NCBI GenBank assembly: GCA_023253175.1
Contig: JALRHH010000002.1
Coordinates: 320,199-384,198, forward strand
DNA from: Candidatus Saccharimonadia bacterium
GTDB lineage: Bacteria; Patescibacteriota; Saccharimonadia; Saccharimonadales; JALRHH01
Length of the DNA: 64,000 nucleotides
Direction of reading: 5' to 3'
The position numbers were made by a program, and so were the translations under genes. Positions within the stretch are counted from its first letter, which is position 1; each line of letters opens with the position of its first letter. The notes under the pieces are model-generated. The model saw nothing but the letters and a program-made list of their open reading frames with translations, made no database searches and was not told where the DNA came from. Positions 31,826 through 32,001 of the stretch are shown one piece after another.

Positions 31826-31942
31826 GCGGACCGAACGGGATTAGTGCACATCTGCGGCCATGCTCGGAATGAATTCCTGTGTGTGGCCTTGATGACGACC
31901 CCGCGACCTTTCAAAACAGCTAGAGCTGTCTTGGGTCGCGGG
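31826..31942 (-). pseudogene. tRNA-Asp 3'-part pseudocopy interrupted in the T loop by the 47-nt module (copy B)
   Basis: 31826-31842 is a 17-nt exact repeat of tRNA-Asp 32001-32017. On the minus strand the order is GAAAGGTCGCGGGGTC, then the module (31845-31891), then ATCCCGTTCGGTCCGC. An inverted copy TTTGAACCCGCGACC of the T arm lies next to it. Confidence 0.7.
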
Positions 31943-31963
31943 TTCAAAGATCATATGCATCAA

Positions 31964-32001
31964 CCAAATAAAAAACTCCCGAACGGGAGTTCTTTATTTG
32001 G
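31964..32001 (-). terminator. 18-bp hairpin starting at the tRNA-Asp CCA end
   Basis: On the minus strand: CCAAATAAAGAACTCCCG-tt-CGGGAGTTTTTTATTTGG. Confidence 0.75.

Follow-up and report, generated by a model that had tools for sequence, protein, structure and literature searches.

How does a tRNA gene come to be followed by a second copy of its own 3' end? The question is raised by a stretch of 64,000 nt (the window) on contig JALRHH010000002.1 of a Candidatus Saccharimonadia bacterium, in which an intact tRNA-Asp gene is trailed by a terminator hairpin, by an antisense and a sense copy of its T arm, by a compact folded module, and finally by a stranded repeat of its 3' end with a second terminator. 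The answer proposed here is that the locus carries a miniature, non-autonomous, protein-less integrative element, which targets the 3' parts of tRNA genes in Saccharibacteria and whose folded module would be recognised by an enzyme encoded elsewhere. We assign this reading a probability of about 0.55; most of this weight is carried by the element being miniature, non-autonomous and integrative, a chemistry of folded single strands having a far smaller share. Inserts of this kind, built around one small conserved folded module, apparently form an undescribed family: searches of the full-text literature returned no description of such elements, nor did Rfam.

The insert at tRNA-Asp and its empty sites

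An earlier note on this DNA had read the locus on the minus strand as an intact tRNA-Asp, a CCA-anchored 18-bp hairpin, an inverted T-arm copy, a small hairpin, a direct copy, a module, a 17-nt exact repeat of the tRNA 3' end and, directly after it, a second strong terminator. All of these were recovered where it had placed them (Table 1). The module that it described is indeed shared between tRNA-Asp and tRNA-Arg, at a size of ~52-53 nt (from the P1 strand to GTGCAC) instead of the 47 nt first given. The 5' arm of the proximal terminator begins at the CCA of tRNA-Asp and a T run follows the hairpin; the place taken by the spacer after it is held by a small hairpin in about two thirds of the related elements described below. 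The antisense copy spans the variable region, T stem and T loop of tRNA-Asp; it mirrors the true tRNA, including A57, and not the neighboring sense copy, with which it nevertheless pairs to form a long foldback. The repeated 17-mer has just two matches in the 64 kb, even with up to two mismatches allowed, against a chance expectation of 0.01, and past its displaced copy the former CCA now reads CTA (31823-31825). The ends of the insert are not inverted repeats, the left one (AATAAAGAAC...) and the right one (...GATGTGCAC) being unrelated. Compared with shuffled sequences the region folds with z = -4.2 as RNA, and with z = -4.3 and -2.8 for the two strands as DNA. The loop and stem of the proximal terminator additionally hold CCCGTTCGG (31979-31991), a third partial copy of the T-stem and acceptor 3' strand, which may be a chance occurrence of a C(UUCG)G-type hairpin.

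Table 1. Coordinates of the inserts in the window and of their parts.
Feature	Position	Strand	Basis or detail
tRNA-Asp(GTC), intact	31999..32074	-	ARAGORN; Rfam tRNA, 57.4 bits
Direct repeat copy 1, AATCCCGTTCGGTCCGC, tRNA positions 58-74	32001..32017	-	repeat comparison
Element-borne (proximal) terminator	31964..32001	-	18-nt arms 31964-31981 and 31984-32001, 94% complementary
15-nt spacer between proximal terminator and antisense copy	31949..31963	-	
Antisense T-arm copy TTTGAACCCGCGACC, complement of tRNA positions 46-60	31934..31948	-	perfect 15-nt inverted repeat of 32016-32030
Small hairpin ACAGCTCTAGCTGT, tip of foldback	31916..31929	-	
Sense copy GAAAGGTCGCGGGGTCG of variable region and T-stem 5' strand, ends TCG	31896..31912	-	14 nt, 93%
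Conserved module	31844..31895	-	alignment of 17 copies, pair counts, two covariance models
Module helix P1	CATC 31891-31894, GATG 31849-31852	-	
Module helix P2	GGCCA 31884-31888, TGGCC 31856-31860	-	
Module helix P3	GGAA 31874-31877, TTCC 31866-31869	-	
Module internal loops CACACAG and CGAGCA; 3' linker TGCAC		-	loops conserved
Direct repeat copy 2, AATCCCGTTCGGTCCGC, displaced original tRNA 3' end	31826..31842	-	repeat comparison; empty sites L055, L044, L047
Second (distal) terminator, native to tRNA-Asp, ~175 bp from gene	31789..31824	-	16-nt arms 31789-31804 and 31809-31824, 100% complementary
tRNA-Arg(CCT), host of second element	27764..27838	+	ARAGORN
Second element (Arg)	27839..27979	+	covariance model; empty sites L043, L044, L047
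Arg element, proximal terminator	to 27876	+	
Arg element, small hairpin	27879..27893	+	
Arg element, foldback CGAACC-GTAA-GGTTCG	27894..27909	+	
Arg element, module	27910..27962	+	
Arg element, decayed pseudo 3' end TTTCCTATTGGTAATCC	27963..27979	+	
Decayed third element, downstream of tRNA-Thr(CGT)	32572..32700	+	covariance model
Thr element, antisense T-arm piece TCGAACCGG	32587..32595	+	
Thr element, diverged module	32609..32668	+	pseudo 3' end almost gone

The history of the locus can be followed in relatives (designated here by L numbers), whose syntenic regions were retrieved through the neighboring SurA-like protein. The closest relative found, L055, with a SurA-like protein 94% identical to that of the window, has the same tRNA-Asp allele and no insert: its junction reads ...TTCAAATCCCGTTCGGTCCGCC followed by AAGAAAAAAGACTCACaactGTGAGTCTTTTTTCTT, and the tRNA runs directly into AAGAAAAAAGACTCAC-aact-GTGAGTCTTTTTTCTT, the distal terminator of the window (an empty tRNA-Asp site in the window's species is expected to read GGTCCGCCAAGAAAAAAG). 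The site is likewise empty in the more distant L044 and L047; their terminators agree with the distal hairpin of the window at 30/37 and 30/38 positions, respectively, and with the proximal one at only 24/38 and 22/38. The arrangement that the earlier note had expected to be ancestral, a tRNA directly followed by the terminator at 31788-31825, is thus found in all three. Because tRNA-Asp is there directly followed by the second terminator, the alignments indicate that the 175 bp of the window are a recent gain or loss, and because the terminators match the distal hairpin, they identify this hairpin and the stranded 17-mer as the original end of tRNA-Asp. By the same comparison the proximal 3' end, its terminator and everything through the module constitute one 175-bp block, present or absent as a unit. 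The proposal that ~175 bp with a replacement 3' end and its own terminator were inserted, displacing the native end, is therefore supported by the empty relatives. Its further point, that the insertion went into the T loop, fits the product, while the crossover can be placed just somewhere within positions 58-74. Under insertion, the 3' part of the intact tRNA-Asp from about position 58 would be a replacement that came with the element.

A further allele of this locus occurs in L040, a k=141 assembly of the same species from another sample, which matches the window at every position of 1,096 nt apart from a single 122-bp deletion (31900-32021) between copies of the 11-nt direct repeat AAGGTCGCGGG. 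It fuses positions 1-53 of tRNA-Asp to the module-bearing pseudo half and leaves no intact 3' half at the locus. Since an 11-nt repeat cannot give a k-mer collapse at k=141, and since the contig spans the junction, the allele seems, to judge from the assembly, to be real and dominant in its sample. Possible explanations are frequent slippage across the hairpins, a second tRNA-Asp gene elsewhere, or a module-bearing gene that is itself usable.

A family of inserts with one folded module

In genomes and metagenomes of Saccharibacteria, module-bearing elements were found at 17 loci, the copies in the window included, after nine tRNA species: Arg-CCT, Asp, Thr-CGT, Met, Gln, Lys, Phe, Ser and Pro. 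Exact-pattern scans over one genome per species and over metagenomes contributed ten further true copies, each just downstream of a tRNA and on Saccharibacteria-type contigs with ~48-50% GC; 19 of the 21 genome matches and 7 of the 15 metagenome matches were discarded as coincidences in GC-rich coding sequence. More diverged copies were added from the syntenic relatives. An old neutral duplication with no other copies of the module, which the earlier note had named as the case against itself, is ruled out by these 17 loci and nine tRNA species.

All modules lie 79-210 nt after the tRNA, in one orientation and with one order of parts. In every copy the tRNA with its CCA is followed by the terminator hairpin (directly after the CCA in 17/17 elements), often by a small hairpin, and then by an antisense T-arm piece, a loop or hairpin, a sense T-arm piece ending in (T)TCG, a linker of 8 nt (9 nt in two copies), the module, a variable linker, and tRNA positions 58 to ~74. 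The direct repeat measures 14-35 nt and is always the tRNA 3' end; the elements span ~150-300 bp, and not one of the 17 contains a gene. Repeat and antisense piece score well above the background obtained from tRNAs without an element, and in the ~254 kb of Saccharibacteria DNA scanned with a covariance model, every module detected lay next to a tRNA.

Inserts occupy three of the seven tRNA genes in the window. At tRNA-Arg, for which the same architecture had been claimed, the parts follow one another in identical order on the plus strand (27764-27979). Seven contigs of the window's own species show no variation in this element; its module differs from that at tRNA-Asp at 16 of 53 positions, mainly through compensating changes in the stems. 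Samples with this species include SRR14560398, ERZ27267684 and ERZ27267807, and a 644-kb contig of the genome is ERZ27267699 k141_834652. The weaker echo noticed earlier downstream of tRNA-Thr proves to be a decayed member: a covariance model built without this copy detects its module at 20.2 bits (E=0.002 over 236 kb). A young element that L048 carries at tRNA-Arg belongs to the same subtype, down to a compensating change in P1 (TAATC/GATTA vs TATTC/GAATA). The distance from tRNA-Thr to the next gene, ~185 nt in the window, is 38-55 nt in L042 and L043, where the insert is missing.

The module folds into three helices, P1 to P3, and all three covary. In the alignment of the 17 copies 90.9% of the pair cells are standard pairs, and 11 of the 13 module pairs have changed on both sides (43 cells); values as high were not reached in any of 500 shuffles, and shifting the partner by 1-3 columns leaves 26-43% paired. 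P2 has been replaced outright from copy to copy (GGCCA/TGGCC, AGCCA/TGGCT, GGGCT/AGCCT, GCTCG/CGAGT and AGTCG/CGGCT), and P3 occurs with at least eight different stem sequences. Nearly invariant, in contrast to these stems, are the loops C-N-C-A-C-A-G and C-G-A-G-C-A and a TCG eight bases upstream. Two pseudoknots, GUUCG-CGAGC and GCA-UGC, are possible on paper and show no covariation. Rfam contains no family for the module, either at the gathering threshold or at E up to 10; a group I or II intron or a known small ribozyme was rejected on the same grounds and because the module is only ~52 nt long. Architectures resembling the hepatitis delta virus ribozyme, the bulge-helix-bulge and the kink-turn were inspected by eye, and none fits.

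A related arrangement without the canonical module is seen in L045 and L046 (12648-12826, minus strand), where the insert at tRNA-Asp is of another kind: it is ~150 nt long and has a perfect 20-nt repeat extending over the CCA. A three-hairpin structure is closed by pairing of its antisense piece with positions 58-65 in the displaced end, and in place of the module stands a reduced hairpin, missed by the covariance model. Two elements of the family have orthologous genes next to them, encoding MATCAP-like proteins that are 64% identical: in L028 (1106-2686) after tRNA-Lys and its element, and in L036 (1354-3468) after tRNA-Pro and its element.

Gain, loss and exchange

The distribution of the inserts is patchy. 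The element at tRNA-Arg is found in the window, L042, L045 and L048 and is missing from L043, L044 and L047, a distribution incongruent with the SurA tree; the copy in L048 has a different module subtype and a perfect 17-nt repeat. Decayed copies remain at tRNA-Thr in the window and at tRNA-Asp in L048 and L043, and older remnants lie distal to newer copies at tRNA-Arg in L042 and L045, as well as in L036, where part of another module's 3' linker persists, nested in the pseudo end. Decay and distal remnants fit repeated insertion beside a regenerated target.

The module at tRNA-Asp in the window is identical at 49/53 positions to that at tRNA-Lys in another genome (L028), and the modules at tRNA-Phe (L030) and tRNA-Pro (L036), both from one metagenome, are identical at 53/53 positions, the remainder of these two elements being unlike. 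The relatedness of modules is, on these alignments, uncoupled from both the tRNA and the host. Between the window and the 93% relative L054, which has the same tRNA-Arg allele with an element, the flanks are ~88% identical and the modules agree at only 33/53 positions: terminator, small hairpin, P1, P2 and P3 all differ, with full compensation, and the loops are unchanged. Because all helices differ with compensation between flanks that are ~88% identical, vertical drift is ruled out.

In a comparison of the window with L042-L049, tRNA-Arg(CCT) and tRNA-Asp each occur as two very different alleles, distributed incongruently with the SurA tree, and tRNA-Val is almost identical in nearly all genomes compared; from these sequences, the element-bearing tRNA genes appear to have been exchanged horizontally. 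Downstream of tRNA-Arg lies a hotspot of variation. In the window, 27980-28360 holds a small open reading frame (called at 102-129 residues, hydrophobic, no Pfam match) in the interval from the Arg element to the next conserved gene; it is seen only in the window's species and in L054, its place being taken by a NUDIX gene in L042 and by nothing in the empty-site relatives. Rearrangement breakpoints coincide with these tRNA loci as well: in L047 (7112-7559, vs 31999-32571 of the window) the block of tRNA-Val and tRNA-Asp has been turned round with respect to tRNA-Thr and the genes on either side, and in L005 tRNA-Asp directly follows the SurA-like gene. Between tRNA-Asp and tRNA-Val the window further contains an insert of ~168 bp (32089-32256) that resembles a miniature inverted-repeat transposable element (MITE), with 26-nt terminal inverted repeats that are 81% complementary; most relatives examined have 70-81 nt in its place, and its repeat is found only in contigs of the window's species.

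No gene was found that could be assigned to the elements. Inspection of neighboring genes and Pfam scans revealed no integrase, transposase or reverse transcriptase adjoining any copy; in the window and among the genes beside eight other copies, the Pfam scans returned just a syntenic Xer-type recombinase and FtsK, and no TnpA/RAYT (Y1) gene was seen in ~300 kb of loci or in the window. All relatives, element-bearing and empty alike, have the Xer-type gene (26210-27160) at the syntenic position, the genes next to the Asp element are housekeeping genes, and no dif-like site was found. Searches of the element by blastn against phage and plasmid collections gave chance matches of 27 nt in mycobacteriophage lysB or nothing, and scans of viral contigs for the module gave none at first and then four chance matches lacking P2 and a tRNA. 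A promoter scan detected no site able to drive the module. Besides the single Xer-type recombinase, the only genes for DNA translocation or recombination seen in the window are those for a 967-residue protein with a weak match to the coupling-protein domain of type IV secretion (49654-52557) and for FtsK with its gamma domain (324-1700). At the far end of the window (59755-64000), tRNA-Ile and tRNA-Ala (62550-62807) lie on the strand opposite to the flanking 16S (59755-61257) and 23S (from 63557) genes, which are probably not one operon; an open reading frame of 341 codons without a Pfam match (61480-62505) separates the 16S gene from the two tRNAs.

Mechanism, alternatives and known counterparts

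The unit extends from about position 58 of the intact tRNA through the end of the module and brings along positions 58-76 with the CCA and a terminator; because it carries these, the interrupted tRNA stays functional. A single crossover within positions 58-76, between the unit and a plain tRNA gene, yields exactly the observed product, leaving the old 3' end and terminator stranded past the module, which sits exactly where T-loop positions 57 and 58 would join. The far junction is what distinguishes the unit: were the module absent, it would be an ordinary pseudo T arm, and with the module the T loop is split after position 57. The mobile form may be a small circle or a single strand, for which the predicted circle or tandem junction is GATGTGCAC-TAATCCCGTTCGGTCCGCCAAATAAAG. 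In such a form the antisense and sense T-arm pieces could pair into a double-stranded likeness of the target from which the module branches off at the exchange point, and a recombinase made elsewhere would then read shape instead of sequence, by analogy with integron attC and the attachment site of CTX phage. This folded form would account for the regeneration of the target, for the position of the newest copies nearest the tRNA, and for the freely varying stems. What the sequences show directly is the insertion with its boundaries, the family, the fold, the lack of a linked gene, and gain, loss and decay; the recombinase, the single-stranded form and the way strands are exchanged are proposals. 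A more far-reaching version, which we consider less likely than not, would make the inserts a new class of mobile DNA specified by structure and guide: a protein-free cassette of ~170 nt homing to tRNA genes, with arms of positions 46-60 antisense and 58-76 sense around the folded module. The module would attract an enzyme of the host, perhaps its single tyrosine recombinase, and the cassette would repair the gene as it inserts; with modules and arms reassorting freely, swapped arms would give new tRNA specificities.

Several observations weigh against an integrative element of this kind. The empty sites could in principle stem from deletion between the 17-nt repeats, and slippage of this sort does occur, as the 122-bp deletion between 11-nt repeats in L040 documents; insertion is the simpler reading, given that lineages share the distal and not the proximal terminator. 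The wobble counts, 6-7 G·U vs 2 A·C, together with a conserved C·A that corresponds to U·G on the other strand, favor neither strand as the folded one, and both strands fold well. No circular or excised form, recombinase or transcript was seen, and a double-stranded circle of 175 bp would be very small. The antisense copy crosses position 58 into the 3' strand of the T stem only in L020, L022, L031 and the tRNA-Asp insert of L045, so that the duplex copy of the target is often half formed. Finally, the model does not explain how one module lineage acquires left arms for different tRNAs.

The horizontal exchange of alleles could also mean that the inserts are cassettes with homology arms, spread by natural transformation and ordinary RecA recombination, without a dedicated recombinase, into any genome with the same tRNA; the tRNA would be the left arm, the pseudo 3' end of 17-35 nt the right arm, and the module a passenger or selfish payload. 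The window encodes a type IV pilus and a competence-type gene set; the incongruent Arg and Asp alleles beside a near-invariant tRNA-Val point to horizontal replacement at precisely these loci; the repeats, at 14-35 nt, resemble homology tracts more than a fixed staggered cut; and the Arg element has been swapped wholesale between strains that are 93% identical. We nevertheless consider this account doubtful, for it leaves unexplained a covarying module kept in every copy, the position of that module at T-loop 57/58, the antisense T-arm copy and the first origin at nine tRNAs, and 17 nt make a very short right arm for integration by RecA. Alternatively, the inserts may be scars of larger elements integrated at tRNA genes by a tyrosine integrase (prophages, plasmids or islands), which have lost their interior and whose attachment-site arm survives as the module. 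The signature of such elements is a restored gene together with repeats of the tRNA 3' end that begin in the T loop. Williams is said to have described, in 2002 (Nucleic Acids Res 30:866), tRNA-targeting integrative elements with crossover in the T loop or the 3' end. Tandem remnants at one tRNA are equally typical, as reported for the ssrA islands of Dehalococcoides (PMC3146451). Yet all 17 copies share the same minimal, gene-free form of 150-300 bp, on whose single order of parts independent deletions would not converge, and the module has no counterpart in the phage and plasmid records or viral contigs searched; moreover, its covariation speaks for selection on a fold and not on a protein-binding sequence. 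Scars are unlikely because of this shared minimal form and because no parent element was found.

Action of the module as RNA would fit its covariation and its place between T-loop positions 57 and 58, where the T-loop motif tolerates inserted domains. The inserts would then be functional RNAs on tRNA genes, either a structured trailer RNA or, if transcription passes the first terminator, an intron-like insertion in a second 3' half; the antisense piece would sequester the true T arm, and the pseudo T arm and module together would complete a molecule shaped like a tRNA. The antisense piece does match the true tRNA better than the adjacent sense copy, and in L040 the sole tRNA-Asp copy at the locus has the module inside it. 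In every copy, however, a strong terminator precedes the module, and the promoter scan yielded no likely site; the T stem is disrupted by indels in the sense copies, and no bulge-helix-bulge, group I core or Rfam ribozyme was matched. As the copies decay and vanish in close relatives, the host does not need them, and we regard an RNA function as improbable. A bulge-helix-bulge tRNA intron, in which a 4-bp helix with exon bases lies between two 3-nt bulges, was in particular rejected, P1 being formed from bases of the insert alone, the module-bearing copy lacking positions 1-44, and its sense T stem having indels. That the tRNA 3' end was duplicated locally, by chance or neutrally and without any element, can be set aside almost entirely: slippage, which L040 shows to happen here, can produce short repeats and hairpins, but not one ordered architecture with a covarying module at 17 loci and nine tRNA species, nor a 17-mer repeat with a chance expectation of 0.01. 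Known routes of transposition were discarded as well. Duplication of the target by a staggered cut is ruled out by the 14-35-nt range of the repeats and by the lack of terminal inverted repeats; a MITE, by the lack of these repeats and of a short target duplication of fixed length; and a casposon-like or other cut-and-paste transposon, by the lack of terminal inverted repeats, of a fixed duplication of 14-15 bp, and of a Cas1 or transposase gene.

Saccharibacteria have genomes of ~1 Mb with few recognised mobile elements. If active, the inserts would be among the smallest integrative units known, and would constitute a gene-less parasite that safely occupies essential single-copy genes by supplying its own gene end and terminator. 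The module points to an activity in recombination or RNA binding in this poorly understood phylum, and arms matched to the target around a small fold could in principle serve site-specific insertion in Saccharibacteria, which are hard to engineer. The inserts also mark loci at which tRNA alleles and neighboring genes are exchanged or rearranged.

Among known systems, the islands and prophages that target tRNA genes by P4- or lambda-type tyrosine integrases share with the inserts the 3' repeat starting in the T loop, the restored gene, the old end at the far junction and the pile-up of copies; the inserts differ in being only 150-210 bp long, in lacking integrase and cargo, in having the far junction split at 57/58 by the module, and in always containing an antisense T arm. 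The cis-mobilizable elements (CIMEs) of streptococci are likewise short and gene-free and presumably depend on an enzyme in trans, but represent remnants with both attachment sites of a known integrative and conjugative element, whereas no parent is known here. MITEs are also short and gene-free, and have the terminal inverted repeats and short fixed duplications that are missing here. Tiny, hairpin-based and gene-free too are the palindrome-associated transposable elements (PATEs) of the IS200/IS605 family and the REPINs (doublets of repetitive extragenic palindromes forming hairpins), which are moved in trans by a single-copy single-strand enzyme; they insert beside a fixed target of 4-5 nt, make no long repeat of the target and do not rebuild it, in contrast to the 17-nt repeat in a tRNA T loop described here. 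Randau and Söll reportedly proposed in 2008 that archaeal T-loop tRNA introns shield tRNA genes from integrases. These introns, like the module, insert at or near 57/58 and destroy an integrase-type target; here the host is a bacterium, the interrupted copy is a 3' fragment without its 5' half, and a bulge-helix-bulge is missing. The bridge RNA of IS110 similarly has antisense sequence to the left and sense sequence to the right of the exchange point, around a folded core. This is a resemblance only: Pfam scans showed no adjacent DEDD recombinase, the two-loop architecture is lacking, and IS110, which uses a dinucleotide core, does not duplicate 17 nt.

Further parallels are offered by integron attC and by the attP(+) site of CTX phage (a substrate of XerCD), both of which act as folded single strands. 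They differ from the inserts in that the target here is a tRNA gene, that no IntI was found, and that the single-stranded form is for the inserts a matter of deduction; in addition, the R''/R' boxes of attC (RYYYAAC...GTTRRRY) were not apparent by eye in the 17 aligned copies, whose sole GTT belongs to GGTTCG, with C in fourth place. Shared with them are a fold conserved under drifting sequence, adjacent inverted copies of the target, a regenerated target and tandem insertion and, with integron cassettes, a unit that itself encodes no protein; these likenesses are a matter of analogy, not homology.

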